24,234 bases of DNA from a virus. Below, piece after piece: positions 155-17,434 of the stretch; the first letter of the stretch is position 1, and the number at the start of each line of letters is the position of its first letter. The notes beneath the pieces were generated by a model that searched no databases, was not told the DNA's origin, and saw only the letters and a list, made by a program, of their open reading frames with translations. The stretch lies in UHGV virus genome UHGV-0124819, one strand, 5' to 3'. A program made the position numbers and the translations under genes.

Positions 155-1138
155 CTAATTCCTATCAGCAGGTAGAATTGCTGGGTAGAGCTTAGAGCAA
201 TCATTGCCATAGTCAGGGATAAAGTCCCATAGCCCTTTTGGCGTTTGGAAGACCTCAGGGCTTAAGCCAATCAGCATATAAACATGAACTAACAGCTCGC
301 GCAATCCAGTGACCATTTGCTTTATTTGTTTTTCATCAGAGAAAGAAGTGGTGAAGGGTTTTTCTTCAATGGAGTCAAAAAGAATAAACTCATGTTTTTC
401 ATATCGATAGTCGATCCCTAATTCTCTGCAAAGTTGGATAATATTGATTTCGAGCATTTGAAGGGAAATCACTTGGATATCATAAGAAGTCTCTTTGTTG
501 TAACAGCTTTTAATAGCTTTGTTGATATTCTTATAATAATCTTGAACTCTACCCATAAATAATGAACTTATTTCTTTGCTATAGCCTTCTTCAATAGAGG
601 ATTTTGTAAAAATATTCATGTAAAGAATATAAGGGTGAGAAATGGAAGGTTCTATATATTTTTTTCCATCATCGTGTTCGGTAAACTCTCTACTAACGAT
701 AAATGAAGGGACAGTTTTAAAAATATCGGCATAACTCTTCTGGTGGGCATAAAATGAATCAGATTTATTTTTTGCTTTTACCAGCTCTATTTGATGCTCT
801 GTCCTTGAAAGCTGCGTCTCTGTTTGAATGGTCCTGTGAATATTCTTAACTATAGCTCCAAGAGGTACTGAACTGGCTAGCAGCATTAGAGGGAATTTAC
901 TGATTTCGTAAAAGCGAGTATAGCCGTGGGCACTTAACACCGGGACCTTGCCCCACCATGCGAAAATCCCAAAATAAAAGAATGATAATACTGGTATTCC
1001 GATTGATAACCAGAATAATTTCTGTTTTATAAGGTTTTGTTCATTTAATAAATACCACTTGTATTTATATGTTAAATACAATATGTATATTAACATTACA
1101 ACATAGAACATAATGCCAATTGATGAATAAAGGGTCAT
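155..1138 (-). CDS. Hypothetical membrane-anchored protein: N-terminal 2-3 transmembrane helices plus a ~230-aa soluble domain; AT-rich cargo (moron) gene between int and att
   Basis: 327-aa ORF. Hydrophobic N-terminal segments IGIMFYVVMLIYILYLTY and LFWLSIGIPVLSFFYFGIFAWW, with a possible third, FPLMLLASSVPLGAIV. Start ATG at 1136-1138 overlaps the int stop codon in an ATGA arrangement. Composition is strongly AT-biased and Lys/Ile/Tyr/Asn-rich, unlike the neighbouring int. No recognisable catalytic motif. Confidence 0.65.
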   Translation of the reverse strand: MTLYSSIGIMFYVVMLIYILYLTYKYKWYLLNEQNLIKQKLFWLSIGIPVLSFFYFGIFAWWGKVPVLSAHGYTRFYEISKFPLMLLASSVPLGAIVKNIHRTIQTETQLSRTEHQIELVKAKNKSDSFYAHQKSYADIFKTVPSFIVSREFTEHDDGKKYIEPSISHPYILYMNIFTKSSIEEGYSKEISSLFMGRVQDYYKNINKAIKSCYNKETSYDIQVISLQMLEINIIQLCRELGIDYRYEKHEFILFDSIEEKPFTTSFSDEKQIKQMVTGLRELLVHVYMLIGLSPEVFQTPKGLWDFIPDYGNDCSKLYPAILPADRN

Positions 1139-4765: not shown

Positions 4766-4992
4766 TGGCTGATGCAATGGATCTCGTACAGCAGCGCGTT
4801 GAAGAAGAACGCCAGCGTCATATCCGTACTGCCCGTGCCAAAACGCCGGGCGTGTCCCGCGTGCTTTGCATTGAGTGTGAAGCGCCAATTCCGCCAGCAC
4901 GCCGCCGTGCCATTCCGGGTGTGCAGCTTTGCATTACCTGTCAGGAAATCGCAGGGCTGAAAGGCAAACATTACAACGGAGGTGCTGTATGA
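4765..4992 (+). CDS. TraR/DksA-family C4 zinc-finger protein
   Basis: 75 aa. Cys pairs CIECEAP ... CITCQE form a C4 finger. Common in P2-like early operons. Confidence 0.8.
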   Translation: MADAMDLVQQRVEEERQRHIRTARAKTPGVSRVLCIECEAPIPPARRRAIPGVQLCITCQEIAGLKGKHYNGGAV

Positions 4993-5846
4993 GCACCATC
5001 CTGAAATGGGCGGGAAATAAAACCGCCATTATGTCCGAACTGAAAAAGCATCTTCCTGCTGGCCCGCGACTGGTTGAACCTTTCGCGGGTTCCTGTGCAG
5101 TGATGATGGAGACGGAGTACCCCAGCTATCTTGTTGCGGATATTAATCCTGATTTAATCAACCTCTATAAAAAGGTTGCTGCTGATTGTGAATCATTTAT
5201 ATCTCGCGCCAGAGTTTTATTTGAGATCGCAAACAGGGAGGTAGCTTATTACAACATAAGGCAGGAGTTTAATTACTCAACTGAAATTACTGATTTCATG
5301 AAAGCGGTATATTTCCTGTATCTCAATCGTCACGGTTACCGTGGTTTATGTCGCTATAACAAGAGCGGGCATTTCAACATTCCCTACGGTAATTATAAAA
5401 ATCCGTATTTCCCTGAAAAAGAAATTCGCGCATTTGCAGAAAAAGCCCAGCGAGCAACGTTTATCTGCGCCAGCTTTGATGAAACGCTGGCGATGTTGAA
5501 GGCGGGGGATGTGGTGTATTGCGATCCGCCGTATGACGGTACGTTTTCCGGCTATCACACTGATGGTTTCACTGAAGATGACCAGTATCACCTGGCATCC
5601 GTTCTTGAACATCGGTCATCAGAAGGACATCCGGTCATTGTTTCTAACAGTGACACATCCCTGATCCGTTCGCTGTATCGCAATTTTACTCACCACTATA
5701 TCAAGGTAAAACGCAGCATCGGTGTGGCAGCTGGCGAGGGTAAATCAGCAACAGAAATCATTGCTGTTTCCGGGCCGCGCTGCTGGTTGGGATTTGATTA
5801 TTCGCGTGGCGTGGATAGTTCTGCCGTGTACGGAGTGCGTGCATGA
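4989..5846 (+). CDS. dam: DNA N6-adenine methyltransferase (Dam-like)
   Basis: Start ATG at 4989 overlaps the TraR stop (ATGA). Motifs KWAGNK, SAM-binding EPFAGSCAV, and catalytic DPPY (CDPPYDG). Confidence 0.9.
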
Positions 5847-8410: not shown

Positions 8411-8599
8411 ATGCAGGACTATTTTTTGGAGTCTTTGAAGCTCCAGCGCATTGATTTTTTTCTTAAGCTTGTAGCGGCTAGTGAGTGTAGTGATGAAGAG
8501 AAGGGGCTGGCTCTGCAGTGGGTTTCTGAATTGACTGATGAACTCATGGCAAAAATCAGAAGCCACGAATACAACCGCTCAATGGATGTCATCAACTGA
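8411..8599 (+). CDS. Hypothetical small protein in the position of the 186 tum (SOS-inducible antirepressor) region
   Basis: 62-aa ORF, ATG at 8411 with SD AGGAGG at 8401-8406. Lies directly downstream of the LexA box. Confidence 0.5.
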   Translation: MQDYFLESLKLQRIDFFLKLVAASECSDEEKGLALQWVSELTDELMAKIRSHEYNRSMDVIN

Positions 8600-8609
8600 G
8601 GTGACTTTT

Positions 8610-8843
8610 ATGTGCATTGAAATAATGATCGATAAAGAGCAGAAGATTAGCCAGTCTACCCTGGACGCCCTTGAATCCGAGCTTTACCGCAATCTGCGCC
8701 CCCTGTATCCCAAAACGGTAATCCGTATCCGTAAAGGTAGCTCTAACGGTGTGGAACTGACCGGACTGCAACTGGACGAAGAAAGAAAACAAGTGATGAA
8801 AATTATGCAGAAGGTGTGGGAAGACGACAGCTGGCTGCATTGA
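8610..8843 (+). CDS. DinI-family protein (DNA-damage-inducible protein I-like)
   Basis: 77 aa, MCIEIMIDKEQ...LDALESEL...QKVWEDDSWLH. Aligns by eye over its full length with E. coli DinI (MRIEVTIAK...IDALAGEL...QETWESADDW). SD GAGGTG upstream. Confidence 0.8.
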   Translation: MCIEIMIDKEQKISQSTLDALESELYRNLRPLYPKTVIRIRKGSSNGVELTGLQLDEERKQVMKIMQKVWEDDSWLH

Positions 8844-8897
8844 TTTTGTCAATAGACGCTTGTTTTTACTAATCAAAAAGGGTTACATATGAGTGAG

Positions 8898-8931
8898 AGG
8901 CGATGTCAATCAGATATCGCCTTGTTTTTTG
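8898..8931 (+). terminator. Intrinsic terminator after the DinI-like gene
   Basis: Stem AGGCGAT / ATCGCCT (8898-8904 / 8916-8922) followed by TGTTTTTTG. Confidence 0.55.
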
Positions 8932-8956
8932 TCAAGAAAAGAATAATAGGCTAAAA

Positions 8957-9634
8957 ATGAAAATTAATAACGTAGCGTTACCAATATCTCTTGCTGTAAT
9001 CCTAACTGGTTGCGTGCCACATGCTTCTAACCGAAATATCACTGCTATTGAAGTGGTGAAGCCTGCTATTGGGCAAAGTGCTACCGCCTACATGGGCGAT
9101 CCCATTATCACATCTGCTACTGGATTTAAAACGGACGTACTAGAACTTGGTGCGGCTAATGGTGCATTGTCTTCTATCGCTGCTGGTACATATTGCAGTG
9201 AGGGGAATGGAATTTACCGCAATTATCATAACCCTCAAGCTGTTGCGTTAAAAAATCTCTATGGGCAAATCGGTAACTATGTTGATTATGTTAGTTACGA
9301 TGCTGCAAAAAATGAGATATCACCGCCAAATGGTACTTCTTATACTGCATCAGAAATTTCTATCAAACGTGTTCCTGATGGGCTGTGTCGAGTTAGTAAC
9401 TCATTGGTTAAGACTATCGAATACAATGGAAATGCAGGCGGTGTAATGAAGTTCACCTATCGTGAATTTGCAAACGATATGGCTCGTGCAGCATTTACAA
9501 CAGATTTTTCTGTAGATTCTAAGGGAAGTGACGTTATCGCTTACAAAGGTGCCAAGTTCAAAGTGAACAAGGCTGATAACTCGTCTATTTCTTATACAAT
9601 TATTTCTGGCTTTGACAAGGCTGTCACGTTCTAG
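8957..9634 (+). CDS. Lipoprotein of unknown function (moron)
   Basis: Signal peptide MKINNVALPISLAVILTGC with lipobox LTGC. 225-aa Gly/Ser/Thr/Asn-rich mature part. AT-biased. Bracketed by terminators at 8898-8931 and 9739-9765. Confidence 0.75.
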   Translation: MKINNVALPISLAVILTGCVPHASNRNITAIEVVKPAIGQSATAYMGDPIITSATGFKTDVLELGAANGALSSIAAGTYCSEGNGIYRNYHNPQAVALKNLYGQIGNYVDYVSYDAAKNEISPPNGTSYTASEISIKRVPDGLCRVSNSLVKTIEYNGNAGGVMKFTYREFANDMARAAFTTDFSVDSKGSDVIAYKGAKFKVNKADNSSISYTIISGFDKAVTF

Positions 9635-9738
9635 GTTTCACGCTTGCTGAGTATGTTACGATTTTGCACATTCTGCATAAACGCGCATGTCTATGCTGCA
9701 TGAGATCGCATGATCGTTTGAGGATCTTTTGTGTTAAG

Positions 9739-9765: not shown

Positions 9766-9807
9766 TAGATCATGCAGGTGCATGAAAACCACTACATAAA
9801 GCGGGCA

Positions 9808-9826
9808 GGCGTGGCGGGGATACGAG
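9808..9826. other. Candidate cos site (19-nt cohesive-end region)
   Basis: GGCGTGGCGGGGATACGAG begins with GGCGTGGCGGGGA, matching the first 13 nt of the 186-type cohesive end as I recall it (GGCGTGGCGGGGAAAGCAT). GC-rich element in a non-coding gap between the replication and portal gene blocks. Confidence 0.45.
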
Positions 9827-9973
9827 CGCGCGCAAGGTATAGAAACAGTCGTTTGTTTACAAACAGATACTATGATTTTCAATGTTCTTTCAAATTGTTG
9901 CTTTAAGATAGCAGGTAGATGTTTGTAGTTGTTGCGTGAACTGATAAGCTTCTACAACTATCGAGGAAAGGAT

Positions 9974-11041
9974 ATGAAGCGGCTAACTGAAGAACAAATT
10001 GAACATTCTTTGATCAGAGCAAGGAAGATTGCGAAGCGGGAGTCAAGAAAGCTTTCTGGTGGAAGACGGATGCTACAGCCCATGCGGGTATTCTCTCGTG
10101 TGAGAATACCCGCGCCTGCGTCATTGGACTTATTTAATACTAAAAATTACAAACTATTTATAGAGTTTATCACTTTAATAAGAGATTACATCAATGATGG
10201 TGAGAAAATTTTAATAGATTTCAGAAATACAAAATCTCTGAAAGCATGTGCAGTAATCGTATTGTATGCACATATTGACTTTTTACAAAGGCAAACAAAA
10301 GATAAAAATATAATTTCTATTACTACGTGCGGTTCATCCAGGGCAAATAACTGGTTTAAAATATGTGGTATTTGGGGGATTACAGGGTTTCAGCGTATAG
10401 CTGCAGATAAGCTTAATTCAATGGAAATTGTTTCCGCTGTTGCAGGCAAAACTAGAGATGATCATGAAAGTGCCGAAGCAAGACAAAAAATTAAAAATAT
10501 TCTACGTTATATAAAAGATACCATTTATGAAGGTAAGATTTCCGCTTCGGATGGTGTGAAATTATATGCAGCCTTAACTGAATCTATTAGCAATGTTGGT
10601 CTACATGCGTATTCAAATGAAGAACAGTTCTCTGAATTTATTGAGGACATTGGTAAAAGATGGTGGATATTGGCACACAAAGTCGAAGAACAACTATTTT
10701 TGATGGTGTATGATATGGGAGAAGGTATCCCAGTTACATTGGTTAAAAAAGACTTTTTCACATTTATCGCTCAGATATTTAATCCTAAGACGGATTCTGA
10801 TAAAATATTCGCGGCTGTACAGTATGGTGAGACAAGAATGAATAGTCAGAAGCATGGTAAAGGATTACCTGATATGAAAAGGTATGTTGTAGATAACCCT
10901 GAGGGGCAGTTACATATTTTTAGTGGAATGGGACGATATTCTTATGATGCTGAAAATAATGTTGAAGATAAATTTGATCTGCCATACTCCATAGGTGGAA
11001 CCCTTATTCAATGGAATGTAAGTTTGAGAGGTGCTGAATGA
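9974..11041 (+). CDS. Cassette gene 1: protein with a C-terminal GHKL-superfamily ATPase/kinase domain (RsbW/SpoIIAB-like) and an N-terminal domain of unknown function
   Basis: 355 aa from ATG 9974 (SD GAGGAAAGG). N-box-like LTESISNVGLHAY (10580-10612; compare SpoIIAB SEAVTNAIIHGY), G1-box-like YDMGEGIP (10709-10732), G2-like HGKGLPD (10853-10873). AT-rich. Confidence 0.6.
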   Translation: MKRLTEEQIEHSLIRARKIAKRESRKLSGGRRMLQPMRVFSRVRIPAPASLDLFNTKNYKLFIEFITLIRDYINDGEKILIDFRNTKSLKACAVIVLYAHIDFLQRQTKDKNIISITTCGSSRANNWFKICGIWGITGFQRIAADKLNSMEIVSAVAGKTRDDHESAEARQKIKNILRYIKDTIYEGKISASDGVKLYAALTESISNVGLHAYSNEEQFSEFIEDIGKRWWILAHKVEEQLFLMVYDMGEGIPVTLVKKDFFTFIAQIFNPKTDSDKIFAAVQYGETRMNSQKHGKGLPDMKRYVVDNPEGQLHIFSGMGRYSYDAENNVEDKFDLPYSIGGTLIQWNVSLRGAE

Positions 11042-11358
11042 AAATCAAAGAGATACATGTTGCTGAAGATTTTTCAGATGTTCCCTATGGCCGCTATGAT
11101 GAGGATGGTCCTGATAATGGACAACGTTTCCGTGAAAAGTATCTTTTGAAAGCCATCCAAGATTATGATGAGGTGCACGTGTACCTTGATGGTGCTATGG
11201 GTTATGGTTCTTCATTCTTGGAAGAGGCGTTTGGTGGACTTTATAGAACAAATAATATAGATAAAGCTATAATTAGGAAAAAATTAAAAATATTTACTGA
11301 TTTGGATTTCCTCAAGGATAGTATATGGGGATATATTTCTGATGCTAAAAAGGAGTGA
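11038..11358 (+). CDS. Cassette gene 2: small acidic protein, possibly STAS-like (anti-sigma-factor-antagonist-like, DUF4325-type)
   Basis: 106 aa. ATG overlaps the gene 1 stop (ATGA at 11038-11041). Segment VHVYLDGAMGYGSSFLEEAFGG (around 11200-11235) resembles the SpoIIAA/RsbV pattern h-h-D-x-S/G-x-h-x-h-DSSGLG. Confidence 0.5.
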   Translation: MKIKEIHVAEDFSDVPYGRYDEDGPDNGQRFREKYLLKAIQDYDEVHVYLDGAMGYGSSFLEEAFGGLYRTNNIDKAIIRKKLKIFTDLDFLKDSIWGYISDAKKE

Positions 11359-11363
11359 TGTTC

Positions 11364-11852
11364 ATGGATGAACTTCCGGTTTATCTGCGGTTATTACAAT
11401 ACCTTGCTAGTTCAGGTGTGATTGCAATTCTAACAGCCTTGATTGGTTGGGTTTTTGTTTATAGAAACTCCCGTGCGTTGCAAAAGAGGAGTGAAACATG
11501 GTCAATTGTAAAAAATGTTTCAGATAATTTAAAGGAAATTGAATCTGCATCAAGAAAGTTTTGGATACCGGGAGATTCAAAAGAAATTGATGCAATGTCA
11601 TTTCAAAATGAGATAACAGCACTTCTTGCGGAGACCGAGCGGTGGTTGAATCATCTAAAACAACGCATTAATATCGAAGGTGACTATAAACCTTTGATTG
11701 CTGATTTATTCAAAGATGCTACATCTAATATTGAAAAAGCACAGGAGTATGATAAAAGTCAAAGGACAAGAATTAGTGTATTAGTGTCAAAAAGGGCGAA
11801 AATAATTAAATCTCTAATTGATGAGTCTTATCAGAAAAAATTCTTAAAGTGA
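11364..11852 (+). CDS. Cassette gene 3: single-pass membrane protein with a C-terminal coiled-coil-like region
   Basis: Likely ATG at 11364, 9 nt after SD AAGGAG and 5 nt after the gene 2 stop. TM helix VIAILTALIGWVFVY, then a charged heptad-like Lys/Glu-rich region. AT-rich. Confidence 0.6.
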   Translation: MDELPVYLRLLQYLASSGVIAILTALIGWVFVYRNSRALQKRSETWSIVKNVSDNLKEIESASRKFWIPGDSKEIDAMSFQNEITALLAETERWLNHLKQRINIEGDYKPLIADLFKDATSNIEKAQEYDKSQRTRISVLVSKRAKIIKSLIDESYQKKFLK

Positions 11853-11862
11853 TAATTTGTTA

Positions 11863-11891
11863 CGGCACGGTAGTGCCGTAGTTTTTTTTCT
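11863..11891 (+). terminator. Intrinsic terminator closing the three-gene cassette
   Basis: Stem ACGGCAC / GTGCCGT (11863-11869 / 11874-11880), loop GGTA, then a T8 run. Confidence 0.75.
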
Positions 11892-11937
11892 TATTATGTG
11901 TTGAGCGATGGATGTCCTATTAAGTGATGTAAATGTA

Positions 11938-12963
11938 TCAGAATGAATATATTTCAAATTCTATTATTTTTTTATCAAGCCATTCATTTATCTCTCCTAA
12001 GCGTTTTTGTAATGGTATAAGTTCGTTTCGTACAAACACTTTACTTGCTTTCTCCACATCCCCAAACCCCCCAACATTATTAGGCATAATCCCCATCATC
12101 TGAGGCGGCACGCGGTGCGCTGCCATCATGTCATCCCGACTCACGTTCTTGATATTAAGAAATTCATCCTTCGCCGCGACTTCTGACAATGGGATGATCT
12201 GAAGCCCGTCCTTTTTGCCGTTAGGCGAGTACATAAACAGGTTGCGGAAGTTGCCTGGACCTTTGGCGCTTTTCATCGCGTTGCGGAGGTTGTTCACATC
12301 CTCCTGGTTTTGTGCGGCATCGGTCATGTACATGATAAAGCCCGCATGGCTGCCGTTAATGTAATACTTGCGACGGAACAGCGTGGCGGACTCGTTGAGC
12401 AGGGCTGACGGAATGGCAGAAAGATAACCGGGCAGGCCGTAGATCTCCTGGTTGATGTCCGGTTCCATCAGATGAAAGATGCTGCCTTTCGTGAACTGAT
12501 ATGGCTGCGTGGTCATACCGTATTGCACAAACCAGTAGGTATCCAGGTCTAACCCGCGTCGGGTGTATTTTGCCAGGGCAGGTTCAAGGGCGATAACTTC
12601 ACCGAAGCGGTTCGTGCGTTTCTCCAGGTAGGCGTTACCAAATACCAGATAGTCCTGCACAAAACGCGAAAAAGCCTGCTGGCTGAGCAGCGGGTGAGGG
12701 ATGTAGGTGCTGGTCAGAATGTTGCACTTTACTGCAATCGGGGAACTATGATGCACGGCAGCGCGGAAGGTGCGCGCCAGTCCGTCAAAGCTGACGGGCG
12801 GCTCATACCAGCGGTCCATCTGTACGCATTCCACATAATCCAGCAGTTCTCGGCGGTCCAGAACAGGAACGGGATCGCCGAAGCTGAATGCTTCGGCTGT
12901 AGTTTGACTTTTAAGCTGGATCTGTTTCGTCGCCGCAGTGCGGTTCTTCTTACTCTTTCCCAT
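11938..12963 (-). CDS. Q: Portal protein (P2 gpQ family)
   Basis: 341 aa, the size and position of P2 gpQ. Convergent with the cassette and immediately followed (upstream on the minus strand) by the terminase gene. Assigned by synteny and length. Confidence 0.9.
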   Translation of the reverse strand: MGKSKKNRTAATKQIQLKSQTTAEAFSFGDPVPVLDRRELLDYVECVQMDRWYEPPVSFDGLARTFRAAVHHSSPIAVKCNILTSTYIPHPLLSQQAFSRFVQDYLVFGNAYLEKRTNRFGEVIALEPALAKYTRRGLDLDTYWFVQYGMTTQPYQFTKGSIFHLMEPDINQEIYGLPGYLSAIPSALLNESATLFRRKYYINGSHAGFIMYMTDAAQNQEDVNNLRNAMKSAKGPGNFRNLFMYSPNGKKDGLQIIPLSEVAAKDEFLNIKNVSRDDMMAAHRVPPQMMGIMPNNVGGFGDVEKASKVFVRNELIPLQKRLGEINEWLDKKIIEFEIYSF

Positions 12964-14729
12964 CAAAAAATCTCCACAATATTGCTGGTATTGGCGGATT
13001 CGCCCTGCAGCGGTTCGTTAAACAGTGCGTGCATCGTTGCCCAGGCCAGATCGGCGTGGCTGGCTTCTTCGCTGCGGCTGGCTTCATAGGTCGGGCGGTT
13101 GCCACTGGCGGTGGTGGCGCGACGGATTGCCATGAATGACTGCGCAATGTCGGTGTGCCCGGCGTCAAACTCAAGACGGCGGTGGCTGATAATGTCGTAG
13201 GCCTTGAGTACCAGGGCGTTTTTAACGTTGGGGTTGTAGACAAACTCCCGGACGGCAGGAAAAAACGCTTTCACGTTCTCGTAAACCCCGTGACCAACGC
13301 CGGTTGAGTCGATGCCGATATAGGTCACGTTGTACCGTTCGGTCAGTTTTTTGATGGCGTCAGCCTGGGCGCGAAAGTCCATTCCGCGCCACTGGTGACG
13401 CTCAAGAATGCGGAACTTACCGCCCGGCACGGCTGGCGGTGCCACCACCACGCATCCGGCGCTGTCGCCGTTTTGCGTACCTTTTGCCGGGTCATAACCG
13501 ATCCACACTTCGCGCCAGCCAAACGGGCGCAGAGCCAGTGCATGAAAGTCGGTCCAGACTTCCCAGCTGTCCACCATGCACGCCTGCAGCTCGCTGAGCG
13601 GGAACACGGACGCGAGATCGTCCACGAACTCACACATCAGCAGGTTCTGGTATTCGTCCGGGCTGTATTCCATGCGTAACTGGTCGAGGTCGAACAGGTT
13701 ACATCCGCCGCGCACCGCATCTTCTACGGTGACTATCTGGCGGTATTGCCCGTCTGCGCACAGCAGGCCGGGGGCCAGATTGCTGTGGGACAGGTCGATG
13801 TCCACCTTATCGGCTTTGTTGCGCCCACGGTTGAACAGCGCACCGGACCAGAACGGATAAGCACTGTGTGTCAGACTGGATGGCGTGGAAAAATAGGTCT
13901 GTCGCCATTTCTTGTGAATAGCCATACCGGAAGCCACTTTGCGCAGCTCCTGGAATTTCGGTATCCAGAAATATTCATCCAGATACAGGTTGCCGTGATA
14001 ACTCTGGGCCGTGCGGGCATTGGTGCCGAGGAAGTAAAGCGTGGCCCCGTTGGGAAGCACCATCGGATCACCTTTCAGCTCCACCTCCACTTCTTTGGCG
14101 AAGTCGATGATGTACTGCTTAAAGACGTGGGCCTGTGCCTTGCTGGCGGAAAGGAAAATCTGGTTACGTCCGGTCAGCAGAGCGTCAATCAGGGCTTCAC
14201 GGGCAAAATAGAAGGTCGCGCCGATCTGGCGTGACTTCAACAGGTTGCGGATGCGGTTGGTTTTTCCGGCTTCCCACCAGTGGCGCTGGTAGTTGAACAT
14301 GGAGGAATGGAAGATTTCCTCCAGCTTTTCAATCTGTTCATCGGTGAAAACGTTCTTTTCCGGCTGACGACGCGGGCCTTTGTTGCGGTTGGCGACGTTA
14401 GGGTTTAAGTCGGCTTCGTTGCCGCCATTGTTAAACTTGCCGATCCGCGCGTGGCGCTCAGACTGGCGCGCCAGCAGGTCAATCTCTTTGAAATCTTTCC
14501 CTTCTTTGTGCTCCTTCATAATGAGCTGGCAGTAGCGGGCGGCGGTGGTGAGCTGCATCTGATCCAGCGGCCCATAGTCACCCCACTTGTCGCGTTTTTT
14601 CCAGCTGTGAACGGTTGCAACTTTCTCGCCCAGCATTTCAGCAATGCGGGCTACGCGGTATCCCTGAAAGTACAGCAGCATGGCCTGCCGACGGGGATCG
14701 AGATCTGCGGGTGTCAGTGTGGTGTTCAT
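12963..14729 (-). CDS. P: Terminase large (ATPase) subunit (P2 gpP family)
   Basis: 588 aa, the size and position of P2 gpP, in the Q-P operon divergent from O. Confidence 0.95.
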   Translation of the reverse strand: MNTTLTPADLDPRRQAMLLYFQGYRVARIAEMLGEKVATVHSWKKRDKWGDYGPLDQMQLTTAARYCQLIMKEHKEGKDFKEIDLLARQSERHARIGKFNNGGNEADLNPNVANRNKGPRRQPEKNVFTDEQIEKLEEIFHSSMFNYQRHWWEAGKTNRIRNLLKSRQIGATFYFAREALIDALLTGRNQIFLSASKAQAHVFKQYIIDFAKEVEVELKGDPMVLPNGATLYFLGTNARTAQSYHGNLYLDEYFWIPKFQELRKVASGMAIHKKWRQTYFSTPSSLTHSAYPFWSGALFNRGRNKADKVDIDLSHSNLAPGLLCADGQYRQIVTVEDAVRGGCNLFDLDQLRMEYSPDEYQNLLMCEFVDDLASVFPLSELQACMVDSWEVWTDFHALALRPFGWREVWIGYDPAKGTQNGDSAGCVVVAPPAVPGGKFRILERHQWRGMDFRAQADAIKKLTERYNVTYIGIDSTGVGHGVYENVKAFFPAVREFVYNPNVKNALVLKAYDIISHRRLEFDAGHTDIAQSFMAIRRATTASGNRPTYEASRSEEASHADLAWATMHALFNEPLQGESANTSNIVEIF

Positions 14730-14871: not shown

Positions 14872-15705
14872 ATGACAGTGAAAGCAAAGCGTTTTCGCAT
14901 CGGGGTGGAAGGTGCCACCACCGACGGACGCGAAATCCAGCGTGAATGGCTGGAACAGATGGCAGCCAGCTACAACCCGGCGGTGTATACCGCGCTGATT
15001 AACCTTGAGCACATCAAGTCTTATCTGCCGGACAGCACCTTTAACCGCTACGGCAAGGTGACGGCGCTGTTTGCTGAAGAAATCACGGAAGGTCCGCTGG
15101 CAGGAAAGATGGCGCTGTATGCCGACGTTGAGCCAACGGAGTCCCTGGTGGAGCTGGTGAAAAAAGGCCAGAAATTATTCACATCTATGGAAGTCAGTCC
15201 GAAGTTCGCTGATACGGGCAAAGCCTACCTGGTTGGCCTGGCTGCCACTGATGACCCTGCCAGTCTGGGTACGGAAATGCTGACATTCAGCGCCAGTGCA
15301 GCCCATAACCCGCTGGCAAACCGCAAGCAGAATCCCGCCAATCTTTTTACCGCTGCTGAGGAAACGGTGATCGAACTGGAAGAAATCCAGGAGGACAAGC
15401 CGTCCCTGTTTACCCGTGTCACGGCGCTGTTCACCAAAAAAGAGCAGTCCGACGATGCCCGGTTCTCTGATGTGCATAAGGCCGTGGAGCTGGTCGCCAC
15501 TGAGCAGCAGAACCTGAGCGCACGCACCGAAAAATCCCTGTCTGAGCAGGAAGAACGCCTGTCTGAGCTGGAGACTGCTCTGCAGGAGCAGAAAACCGCC
15601 TTTAACGAACTGGTGAATAAGCTGAGTCATGAAGACAGCCGCCAGGACTACCGCCAGCGTGCAACAGGCGGTAACGCCCCCGCTGACACTCTGACCAATT
15701 GCTGA
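14872..15705 (+). CDS. O: Capsid scaffolding protein (P2 gpO family)
   Basis: 277 aa, first gene of the rightward late operon. Coiled-coil-like Glu/Leu/Gln-rich C-terminal region. Confidence 0.9.
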   Translation: MTVKAKRFRIGVEGATTDGREIQREWLEQMAASYNPAVYTALINLEHIKSYLPDSTFNRYGKVTALFAEEITEGPLAGKMALYADVEPTESLVELVKKGQKLFTSMEVSPKFADTGKAYLVGLAATDDPASLGTEMLTFSASAAHNPLANRKQNPANLFTAAEETVIELEEIQEDKPSLFTRVTALFTKKEQSDDARFSDVHKAVELVATEQQNLSARTEKSLSEQEERLSELETALQEQKTAFNELVNKLSHEDSRQDYRQRATGGNAPADTLTNC

Positions 15706-15721
15706 TGGAGCACAAAACCCG

Positions 15722-16780
15722 ATGAAGAAGAATACCCGCTTTGCTTTTAACGCTTACCTGCAGCAGCTGGCGCGTCTGAACGGTGTGGCAGTTGAAGAAC
15801 TGTCCAGCAAGTTCACCGTGGAGCCGTCTGTGCAGCAGACATTGGAAGACCAGATCCAGCAGTCCGCCGCTTTCCTGACGCTGATTAACGTCACGCCAGT
15901 GACTGAGCAGTCCGGTCAGCTGCTGGGGTTGGGAGTTGGCAGCACCATTGCCGGAACCACTGATACCACCGCGAAAGAGCGTGAACCTGTCGATCCGACG
16001 CTGATGGTCGATGTGGAATATAAATGCGAGCAGACCAACTTTGACACGGTGCTGACCTACGCGAAGCTGGACCTGTGGGCGAAGTTTCAGGATTTTCAGG
16101 TGCGTATCCGTGACGCCATCGTGAAACGTCAGGCACTGGACCGCATCATGATCGGCTTTAACGGCGTGAAGCGTGCGAAAACCTCCAACCGTAGCGAAAA
16201 CCCGCTGCTGCAGGATGTGAATAAAGGCTGGCTGCAGAAAATCCGTGAGGATGCACCGGATCACGTCATGGGCAGCACCACCACGGGCGGTGAAACCACA
16301 CCGGGCGCGGTGAAAGTCGGTAAAGGTGGCGAATATGCCAACCTGGACGCCGTGGTGATGGATGCCGTTAATGAGCTTATCGACGTGGTCTACCAGGACG
16401 ATGACGATCTGGTGGTGATTTGCGGTCGTGAACTGTTGTCTGATAAGTATTTCCCGCTGGTCAACAAAGAGCAGGAAAACAGTGAAAAACTGGCTGCCGA
16501 TATGATCATCAGCCAGAAACGCATGGGTGGCCTGCAGGCCGTGCGTGCGCCGTTCTTCCCGCCGAATGCGCTGCTGATCACCCGTCTGGATAACTTGTCC
16601 ATCTACTGGCAGGAAGACACCCGCCGCCGTTCAGTTATCGACAACCCGAAACGTGACCGGATTGAAAACTTTGAATCTGTTAACGAAGCCTATGTGGTTG
16701 AGGACTACCGCTGCGCTGCACTGGTGGAAAACATCCAGATTGGCGATTTCAGCGCCGCCGCAGCAGAAGCCGGAGCGTAA
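15722..16780 (+). CDS. N: Major capsid protein (P2 gpN family)
   Basis: 352 aa. N-terminal region TRFAFNAYLQQLARLNGV...KFTVEPSVQQTL resembles the P2 gpN N-terminus as I recall it. Confidence 0.95.
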   Translation: MKKNTRFAFNAYLQQLARLNGVAVEELSSKFTVEPSVQQTLEDQIQQSAAFLTLINVTPVTEQSGQLLGLGVGSTIAGTTDTTAKEREPVDPTLMVDVEYKCEQTNFDTVLTYAKLDLWAKFQDFQVRIRDAIVKRQALDRIMIGFNGVKRAKTSNRSENPLLQDVNKGWLQKIREDAPDHVMGSTTTGGETTPGAVKVGKGGEYANLDAVVMDAVNELIDVVYQDDDDLVVICGRELLSDKYFPLVNKEQENSEKLAADMIISQKRMGGLQAVRAPFFPPNALLITRLDNLSIYWQEDTRRRSVIDNPKRDRIENFESVNEAYVVEDYRCAALVENIQIGDFSAAAAEAGA

Positions 16781-16783
16781 CCC

Positions 16784-17434
16784 ATGAGCCTGAGTCCCGC
16801 ACGGCAGCATCGCCTGCGCGTTCAGGCTGAACAGGCCGCCCGTGAGGGCGGCAGCGTTCGCCACGCGTCGGGCTATGACCTGATGCTGCTGCAACTGGCG
16901 GAAGACCGCCGCCGTCTCAAGGGCGTTCAGTCCACGGTCAAAAAAGCGGAAATCAAAGTGGAGCTGCTGCCGAAGTACGCCGCCTGGGCGGAGGGTGTCC
17001 TGGCTGCCGGAGGCGCTCAACAGGATGACGTGCTGATGTACGTGATGCTGTGGCGCATTGATGCCGGAGATTATGCCGGGGCGCTGGAGATCGGGCGTCA
17101 TGCCCTGCGTCATGGCTGGGTGATGCCGCTGGGTAACCGCAACGTGCAGACCGTGCTGGCAGAGGAAATGGCAGACGCCGCACAGAGCGCAATGCTTGCC
17201 GCCACCGGCTTTGATGTCGATCTGTTGCTGCAGACGCTGGAGCTGACAGACGGTCTGGATATGCCGGACCAGTCACGGGCGCGTCTGCATAAAGCGATTG
17301 GCGCGGTCTTGAGTGAAAGCAATCCGGCTTCCGCCCTTAATCATCTCAACCATGCGTTACAGCTCGATCCCCGCTGTGGCGTGAAAAAAGACAAACAGCA
17401 GCTGGAGCGCAGACTGCGCAATGACAGACGCTGA
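16784..17434 (+). CDS. M: Terminase small (endonuclease) subunit (P2 gpM family)
   Basis: 216 aa. Segments DDVLMYVMLWRIDAGDYAGALEIGRHAL and TLELTDGLDMPDQSRARLHK match P2 gpM as I recall it. Confidence 0.85.
   Translation: MSLSPARQHRLRVQAEQAAREGGSVRHASGYDLMLLQLAEDRRRLKGVQSTVKKAEIKVELLPKYAAWAEGVLAAGGAQQDDVLMYVMLWRIDAGDYAGALEIGRHALRHGWVMPLGNRNVQTVLAEEMADAAQSAMLAATGFDVDLLLQTLELTDGLDMPDQSRARLHKAIGAVLSESNPASALNHLNHALQLDPRCGVKKDKQQLERRLRNDRR

Follow-up and report, generated by a model that had tools for sequence, protein, structure and literature searches.

A three-gene cassette of a STAS-GHKL kinase-type protein, a DUF4325 STAS-like protein and a candidate membrane effector in the P2 hotspot of an Escherichia coli prophage

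The closest described systems to the locus considered here, a three-gene cassette in the P2-like prophage UHGV-0124819, are built around kinases in which a STAS domain is joined to a GHKL domain. CapK, with the domain order helix-turn-helix (HTH)-STAS-GHKL, is switched on by single-stranded DNA (ssDNA) and phosphorylates the STAS domain's conserved serine in the repressor CapS (Chambers et al., EMBO J 2026, PMC13373217). In vapKSC, of which 289 operons have been reported, the STAS-GHKL protein VapK has been proposed to place a phosphate on S48 of the antitoxin VapS and thereby to free the PIN toxin VapC; VapS carrying an S48E exchange no longer binds VapC, and with the S48A exchange defence is lost (PMC13373217). 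The window that we analysed is a stretch of 24,234 nt of UHGV-0124819, and all positions are given in full-window numbering. It represents a 186/Fels-2-type P2-like E. coli prophage, in which three genes on the plus strand between positions 9974 and 11852 code for a STAS-GHKL kinase-type protein (gene 1, or K), a STAS-like protein (gene 2, or S) and a small membrane protein (gene 3). Profile comparisons with VapK and VapS, whose sequences were taken from the appendix of PMC13373217, indicate that the closest characterised relatives of genes 1 and 2 are VapK/VapS and CapK/CapS and not sigma-factor regulators.

Gene 1 (9974-11041, ATG start) encodes a protein of 355 amino acids, which in its AlphaFold2 (AF2) model (pLDDT 81) is composed of a basic N-terminal helix, a STAS domain (residues ~37-140) and a SpoIIAB-like GHKL kinase domain (residues ~160-355). 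The protein has the Bergerat fold of the GHKL superfamily and its sequence hallmarks, namely the N box (E-x3-N), the G1 (DxGxG) and G2 (GxG) boxes and the C-terminal GT. Among 17 homologues, down to 24% identity, E203, N207, H211-A-Y, D247xG249, G295xG297L and G342-T-L-I-x-W are invariant, and these motifs correspond to the N, G1, G2 and G3 boxes that form the GHKL nucleotide-binding site. Among solved structures, the closest match is that of SpoIIAB bound to sigma F; RsbW scores too. Pfam recognises the protein poorly: only HATPase_c is found, with 19 bits and thus below the cutoff of 26.4, and HATPase_c_2 gives no match in the gene 1 product of the window and weak matches in five of the 17 homologues (best E 4.8e-5). 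The STAS domain was called from structure alone; the Pfam STAS model (PF01740) does not detect it in the N-terminal domain of gene 1 and matched one of the 17 homologues, with an E value of 0.098. The N-terminal helix is a single one (residues 6-27 in the model), and the segment to which it belongs is strongly basic, with 14 lysine or arginine residues in the first 45 positions and 12-18 in 15 of the 17 sequences; it could bind nucleic acid or acidic lipid. When the gene 1 profile was aligned to VapK by hhalign, residues 58-347 paired with VapK residues 18-278 over 252 columns (probability 88.5%, E 2.7e-6). An assignment of gene 1 as a histidine kinase was considered and rejected, as the protein has no HisKA/DHp match and the operon contains no receiver protein.

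Gene 2 (11038-11358) encodes a protein of 106 amino acids with a short C-terminal helix. It has a STAS fold and scores 46.3 bits with Pfam DUF4325 (PF14213), for which the cutoff is 23 (E 3.5e-12), and VapS matches the same family with an E value of 2.7e-17. Its core motif GYGS58(S/T)59F is invariant: in 24 homologues G55-Y-G-S58 does not vary, and residue 59 is a serine or threonine and at least 90% conserved. In the structural model (pLDDT 94) helix α2 starts at residue 58, and Ser58 is at the structural position of the phospho-serine of SpoIIAA-type proteins. In agreement with this placement, hhalign of gene 2 with VapS (E 6e-4 over the core motif) sets G57-S58-S59-F60 opposite A47-S48-P49-F50. 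By analogy we infer that the gene 2 protein is a candidate phospho-acceptor for the gene 1 kinase. It is also the most conserved member of the triad, with ~50% identity between E. coli and Pseudomonas; gene 1 is intermediate in this respect and gene 3 the least conserved. On a separate note, gene 2 matches only positions 341-440 of the 441-position profile phrog_5816, so that a longer phage protein, too, has DUF4325 as its C-terminal domain; since gene 1 has no match to phrog_5816 at E<=0.1, the N-terminal part of that protein is not gene-1-like.

The third gene (11364-11852) encodes a protein of 162 amino acids that contains one hydrophobic segment (residues ~10-28) followed by sequence rich in arginine and lysine. 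From this charge distribution an N-out, C-in topology is predicted, and the remainder of the protein, which includes a conserved tryptophan and is helical as judged from its sequence pattern, is probably a domain in the cytoplasm. We consider it the candidate effector of the cassette. Gene 3 has no significant Pfam match, and in particular none to PIN, belongs to no NCBIfam or PADLOC family and gives weak PHROG matches; sequence searches of NCBIfam and the Protein Data Bank (PDB) returned nothing useful for any of the three proteins. The gene-3-like proteins found elsewhere are ~150-200 amino acids long, have an N-terminal hydrophobic segment and share the motifs 'EYW.LD' and 'TGG.FE'. A first-pass annotation of this DNA had described gene 3 as a single-pass membrane protein and gene 2 as resembling phosphorylatable STAS-type antagonists, and the single N-terminal anchor seen by hydropathy, the DUF4325 match and the invariance of S58 bear out both descriptions. 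Its view of gene 1 as an RsbW/SpoIIAB-type GHKL protein was correct as to the N, G1 and G2 boxes and the structural kinship with SpoIIAB, although the threshold for HATPase_c_2 is missed and the STAS domain in the N-terminal part had been overlooked.

The triad is by its homologies and gene order a real, conserved and widespread three-gene module, which has been catalogued and is uncharacterised. The gene 1 profile finds 4057 clusters (50% identity) at E<=1e-3, 1411 of them at E<=1e-30, and nearly all of its best 150 matches are full-length proteins of ~340-400 amino acids. We inspected 24 genomic loci from Gamma- and Alphaproteobacteria, Planctomycetota, Verrucomicrobiota and Binatota. In every one of them, from at least five phyla in all, a DUF4325 gene directly follows gene 1, and a gene-3-like protein with one transmembrane segment (TM) comes next in all but one or two. 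The same order was found in IMG/VR in 40/40 contigs with enough downstream sequence, 38 of which match a hidden Markov model (HMM) of gene 3 that had no matches in a control with reversed sequences. Because each of the three open reading frames (ORFs) has many homologues that are arranged in the same order elsewhere, we take them to be real genes. Phages and their satellites are well represented among the carriers: in Marinobacter phage AS1 the triad adjoins the Cro/CI region, for Francisella phage KIRK a published table shows a like succession of a 293-residue hypothetical protein, a DUF4325 protein and a TM protein, and the triad is present in P4 satellite hotspots.

Two of the homologous loci are unusual. 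In a metagenome-assembled genome (MAG) of Candidatus Binataceae (L024, 1991-2932) the DUF4325 and gene-3-like parts form a single ORF of 313 amino acids, which matches the gene 3 HMM with an E value of 2e-34 and may be either a genuine fusion or an artefact of assembly or frameshifting. As it comes from a single MAG, and as its single TM would leave one domain on either side of the membrane, we regard it as a weak Rosetta-stone hint only. In a high-GC metagenomic contig (L002; 105-2933 and 6324-9029) the triad lies between a 942-residue protein and a 2137-residue DEAD/Helicase_C/MZB protein, a setting reminiscent of a defence island; the source annotation had not called the DUF4325 and one-TM genes.

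The prophage that carries the cassette has the gene order integrase, CI, CII, Fil, Dam-like methylase, GPA replication endonuclease, DinI-like gene, variable slot, and then portal, terminase and capsid. To the left of the slot lies a cos-like sequence with the last bases common to sister prophages (9808-9836), of which the GC-rich GGCGTGGCGGGGATACGAG at 9808-9826 resembles the published P4/P2 cos string; the portal gene (11938-12966, minus strand) lies to the right. A sister prophage (L028, NZ_CP053234.1) is 99.6% identical in the left arm, and its BLASTN homology to the window ends at 9836 and restarts at 11976. The exchangeable slot therefore extends from 9837 to 11975, that is from cos to the 3' end of the portal gene. 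In the sister prophage the same slot is filled by PDC-M03 A+B (15219-16870), a hypothetical and a HIRAN-domain protein listed as a PADLOC defence candidate, and the alignment identifies the difference between the two prophages as a clean allelic swap of cargo. The cassette is present in 20 of 5426 complete E. coli genomes, every copy being at least 99.7% identical, and a distant blastn search of complete E. coli genomes found no diverged copy. A flank of ~36 nt adjoining cos, at the start of a query from position 9800, is common to 937 E. coli genomes and occurs also in Fels-2 and in P2-like phages of Klebsiella and Yersinia. The same triad occupies the same slot in P2-like prophages of Klebsiella (87% protein identity) and Serratia (58%), from which it follows that, as far as these comparisons reach, the triad is a long-standing and recurrent occupant of the hotspot. 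The cassette thus sits in a P2 hotspot in the usual sense, with variable content between the conserved phage flanks of cos/replication gene and portal.

Within the slot the three genes are organised as one compact unit. Genes 1 and 2 share the ATGA at 11038-11041, genes 2 and 3 are spaced by 5 nt (tgttc, 11359-11363), and all three starts are identical in the RefSeq annotation of a 99.9% identical copy. Purine-rich motifs resembling Shine-Dalgarno (SD) sequences precede the three starts (GAGGAAAGGA, GAGAGGTG and AAGGAG, respectively), the first of them lying in a cassette-specific leader (9837-9973, plus strand) 5' of the gene 1 ATG; a promoter scan of this leader found no sigma-70 site with at least 9/12 matches. 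The operon ends at an intrinsic terminator (11859-11892, plus strand), in which a 10-bp stem with five GC pairs and a 4-nt loop (11859-11882) is followed by TTTTTTTTCTT, with a run of eight T residues 3' of the stem. In base composition the cassette stands apart from the phage: its GC content is 0.354 as compared to 0.503 for the whole window and 0.564 beyond position 12000 (35% versus ~56% for the phage core), and the GC content at third codon positions (GC3) is 0.27-0.28 as compared to 0.57-0.60 in the replication and portal genes. Its most frequent codons are AAA, GAT, ATT, GAA and AAT. The first-pass annotation had read this region as three coupled, co-oriented and AT-rich genes with biased codons, each preceded by an SD sequence and the last followed by a terminator at 11863-11891, and had taken them for acquired cargo in the anti-phage hotspot of P2. 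The overlap, gap and coordinates were reproduced, the terminator essentially coincides with the stem and T-run given above, the GC, GC3 and codon counts agree, and the exchange with the sister prophage, the 20 carriers among 5426 genomes and the catalogue listing described next speak for acquisition.

The cassette has been listed before. Table S5 of Rousset 2022 contains a 'system 61, DUF4325' from the P2 hotspot with 68 occurrences, and the entry in E. coli L725 (WP_052928646, WP_130723475 and WP_086258518) is the cassette of the window, gene 1 differing at one visible residue; 'protein 3' of the representative as printed is a different protein, with 214 amino acids and one TM. A divergent homologous triad, whose protein 3 also has one TM, is found in Table S1 of the same work as 'system 69, HATPase_c | DUF4325', from P4 and with 9 occurrences. 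Both systems are outside the set that was cloned and tested in Rousset 2022. Furthermore, the gene 1 product as annotated (WP_052928646) receives log-odds of 5.03 from DefensePredictor (Science 2026) and is classed there as a 'predicted novel defence gene'. The cassette had first been taken for undescribed and for a match to no named system. That no PADLOC model covers it agrees with this, and its listing as system 61 and the DefensePredictor score of gene 1 do not.

How could these three proteins act together? The model that we favour, and to which we would give about an even chance, is that the cassette is a self-contained kinase/STAS-substrate module of the CapK/VapK type, in which gene 3 stands in the place of VapC and the phosphorylation-dependent release of a membrane effector stops a competing phage. 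In the resting lysogen the gene 2 protein would be bound to the gene 3 protein and would hold it inactive. A signal associated with infection, which in the characterised relatives is ssDNA from DNA damage (PMC13373217), would switch on the gene 1 kinase, and this would phosphorylate gene 2 protein at Ser58, or at the neighbouring Ser/Thr59, at the start of helix α2. Once phosphorylated, the gene 2 protein would release the gene 3 protein, which would perturb or depolarise the inner membrane, and arrest or death of the cell would precede completion of the competing phage (abortive infection). This model takes phosphotransfer, the binding between the gene 2 and gene 3 proteins, the toxicity of gene 3, the trigger and the anti-phage phenotype by analogy from the relatives; what the sequences themselves show are the domains, the motifs for catalysis and phospho-acceptance, the kinship with VapK and VapS, the strict three-gene synteny across phyla and phages and the hotspot location.

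Several observations weigh against this model. Gene 3 has no recognisable toxin domain, and its role as effector is suggested by its position and by analogy. PADLOC-DB v2.0.0 contains no family that matches gene 1, 2 or 3 at E<=1, and the neighbours of the 24 loci are no more than modestly enriched in defence and mobile-element genes, with a few methyltransferases, MADS genes and integrases. A locus termed VPUS, annotated as 'hypothetical / STAS-like / hypothetical' and 1871 bp long, was cloned in the DefensePredictor study, whose Table S6 gives its accessions as WP_000060412.1, WP_001244589.1 and WP_000154254.1, and was scored non-defensive; it may be a triad of the type described here or a vapKSC-type operon, as its length fits both. 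Protection by vapKSC itself amounts to ~100-fold and extends to one phage only, Bas42 (PMC13373217). Moreover, the aromatic residue that contacts ssDNA (VapK F54, the counterpart of CapK W68) did not map onto gene 1 or onto the VapK sequence as transcribed. But why would a prophage carry a switch that its own life cycle might trip? A trigger of ssDNA or DNA damage is awkward in an SOS-inducible prophage of the 186 type with an adjacent DinI/Tum-like gene. The GPA nicking endonuclease is expected to give ssDNA through rolling-circle replication, and the cassette might therefore fire during induction of its own prophage. Since an ssDNA trigger should misfire in this setting, the signal might differ from that of CapK and VapK. 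In this context we consider it possible, if doubtful, that the triad is a distinct and very widespread defence family, in which a STAS phospho-switch gates a new membrane effector, possibly with a new mode of sensing, and which is not a mere VapKSC variant; to this reading belong the thousands of clusters found by the gene 1 profile and the spread of the triad over at least five bacterial phyla and several unrelated temperate phages and satellites.

The same kinase/STAS chemistry could also serve a stress-responsive toxin-antitoxin or addiction module, which would stabilise the prophage or take part in the response of the host to DNA damage and would have no meaningful anti-phage activity. The order of a putative antitoxin gene before a putative toxin gene, their tight coupling and the non-defensive outcome for VPUS, the only tested locus of like annotation pattern, would all agree with such a role, as would the fact that VapKSC acts as a toxin-antitoxin system, whose authors stress the blurred boundary between immunity and general stress (PMC13373217). 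Then again, the slot turns over between near-identical prophages and otherwise holds defence candidates, a swapping that is not obviously expected of an addiction module. Together with the recurrence of the triad in P4 satellite hotspots and the DefensePredictor defence score of gene 1, this leads us to regard the addiction role as unlikely. Rather unlikely, in our view, is that gene 3 kills nothing and is an anchor or sensor that positions the kinase-STAS pair at the inner membrane for superinfection exclusion, for sensing of DNA injection or for the tuning of prophage lysis. Membrane proteins of temperate phages often mediate exclusion, as do P22 SieA, T4 Imm and lambda RexB. The predicted topology of gene 3 would allow its cytoplasmic helical domain to dock the products of genes 1 and 2, the strongly basic N-terminus that is kept in gene 1 homologues could bind nucleic acid or acidic lipid, and genes 2 and 3 are joined in the single ORF of the Binataceae MAG. 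However, that fusion stems from one metagenome bin and its single TM would split the two domains across the membrane, nothing in our data links the cassette to DNA injection, and in VapKSC, the sole relative that has been characterised, it is the third gene that encodes the toxin, which the STAS protein inhibits.

A further reading, partner-switching control of transcription or of a sigma factor from host or phage, with gene 1 as an anti-sigma factor like SpoIIAB or RsbW, takes up the host sigma-factor control named as an alternative in the first-pass annotation and appears very improbable. It is true that the best solved structure match of gene 1 is the SpoIIAB-sigma F complex, with RsbW scoring as well. 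SpoIIAB/RsbW-type anti-sigma kinases, however, are typically single-domain proteins of ~140-160 amino acids, as opposed to the 355 residues and fused STAS domain of gene 1. No sigma factor gene was found in the slot or in the homologous loci examined, and no PP2C phosphatase gene is present in the three-gene slot or among the 25 commonest Pfam families of 120 neighbours from the 24 loci; a host phosphatase may reset the gene 2 protein. The constant third partner in hosts of at least five phyla is a membrane protein, the triad being unchanged across them. Finally, although the related CapK-CapS pair does regulate transcription (PMC13373217), gene 2 with its 106 residues lacks the winged HTH (wHTH) or other DNA-binding domain that would make it comparable to CapS.

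The prophage contains further variable or accessory genes outside the slot. Between the DinI-like gene and cos lies a second, independent variable slot (8842-9684), whose gene at 8903-9634 (plus strand) encodes a lipoprotein-like protein of 243 amino acids that matches phrog_1353 (E 4e-105) and has no Pfam or PADLOC match; it is missing in the sister prophage L028, and in L001 a DUF6694 lipoprotein gene on the opposite strand stands in its place. At the prophage end, outside the integrase gene, an ORF of 327 amino acids (155-1138, minus strand), annotated as hypothetical in a sister prophage and without Pfam or PADLOC match, may be a further cargo gene at the attachment site. Directly upstream of the replication endonuclease, 4929-5846 (plus strand) encodes a D12-class N6-adenine methyltransferase, which has its best PADLOC match in the orphan methyltransferase model (E 3e-111) and probably has a role in phage self-protection or anti-restriction. 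The DinI-like ORF (8538-8843, plus strand; Pfam DinI, E 1.3e-22) is at its longest 101 codons as compared to the 77-residue DinI-like protein that RefSeq annotates in relatives. Its location would allow it to be the Tum-type SOS antirepressor known from 186-like phages, an identity that bears on whether a cassette triggered by DNA damage would fire at induction.

If the model of an effector-releasing kinase/STAS module holds, the STAS-kinase phospho-switch would be a general modular controller whose output can be a membrane effector as well as a repressor or a nuclease, and its membrane-wired form would appear to be common and to be carried repeatedly by temperate phages and their satellites. 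A named and tractable family would then join the repertoire of the P2 and P4 hotspots, and a recurrent 'unknown' of the catalogues would be explained. It would also pose the puzzle of how a prophage that responds to DNA damage by induction, and that is expected to generate ssDNA itself, avoids setting off its own cassette. Should the model fail, the triad remains a large conserved family, and its three proteins offer clear genetic handles.

Compared with the known systems, the cassette stands nearest to VapKSC. Both have the operon order of kinase, STAS protein and third gene, a kinase with STAS and GHKL domains and no HTH, and directly downstream of it a DUF4325 STAS protein that ends in a short helix and has a conserved serine at the start of helix α2; mobile elements and the vicinity of defence genes are frequent locations of both. 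They differ in the third gene, which in the cassette codes for a one-TM protein of ~160 amino acids and in VapKSC for a PIN nuclease, and in the kinase, which in gene 1 bears an additional basic helix at the N-terminus and shares only ~22% identity with VapK. The gene 1 family is also large, with 4057 clusters as compared to the 289 vapKSC operons reported, although these counts come from different searches. With CapK-CapS the cassette shares a STAS-GHKL kinase, a STAS protein encoded directly downstream and a linkage to anti-phage loci. Different from gene 1, however, CapK has an N-terminal HTH, and different from gene 2, which matches DUF4325 only, CapS is the repressor of a downstream operon and contains a wHTH; a MarR-type match was obtained with V. 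cholerae CapS and not with gene 2, and the cassette ends in a terminator right after gene 3.

The SpoIIAB-SpoIIAA and RsbW-RsbV pairs are further removed. The slot of the cassette contains neither the sigma factor nor the PP2C phosphatase gene of these modules, the gene 1 kinase is fused to a STAS domain of its own and misses the HATPase_c_2 threshold, and the output of the cassette is apparently a membrane protein. In general design the cassette recalls lambda RexAB, a prophage-borne abortive infection system that pairs a sensor in the cytoplasm with a small protein of the inner membrane, the presumed executioner. The likeness extends to the carriage by a prophage, the cytoplasmic sensing part and the presumed execution at the inner membrane; RexAB lacks kinase/STAS chemistry, and kinship in sequence or fold is not to be expected. 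Because the PIN toxin that defines VapKSC is absent, we do not place the cassette within that system. Judged from its genes, the best description is that of a CapKS/VapKSC-like variant with an exchanged effector, which stands outside VapKSC itself and combines the kinase and STAS protein of these systems with a membrane-anchored third partner.

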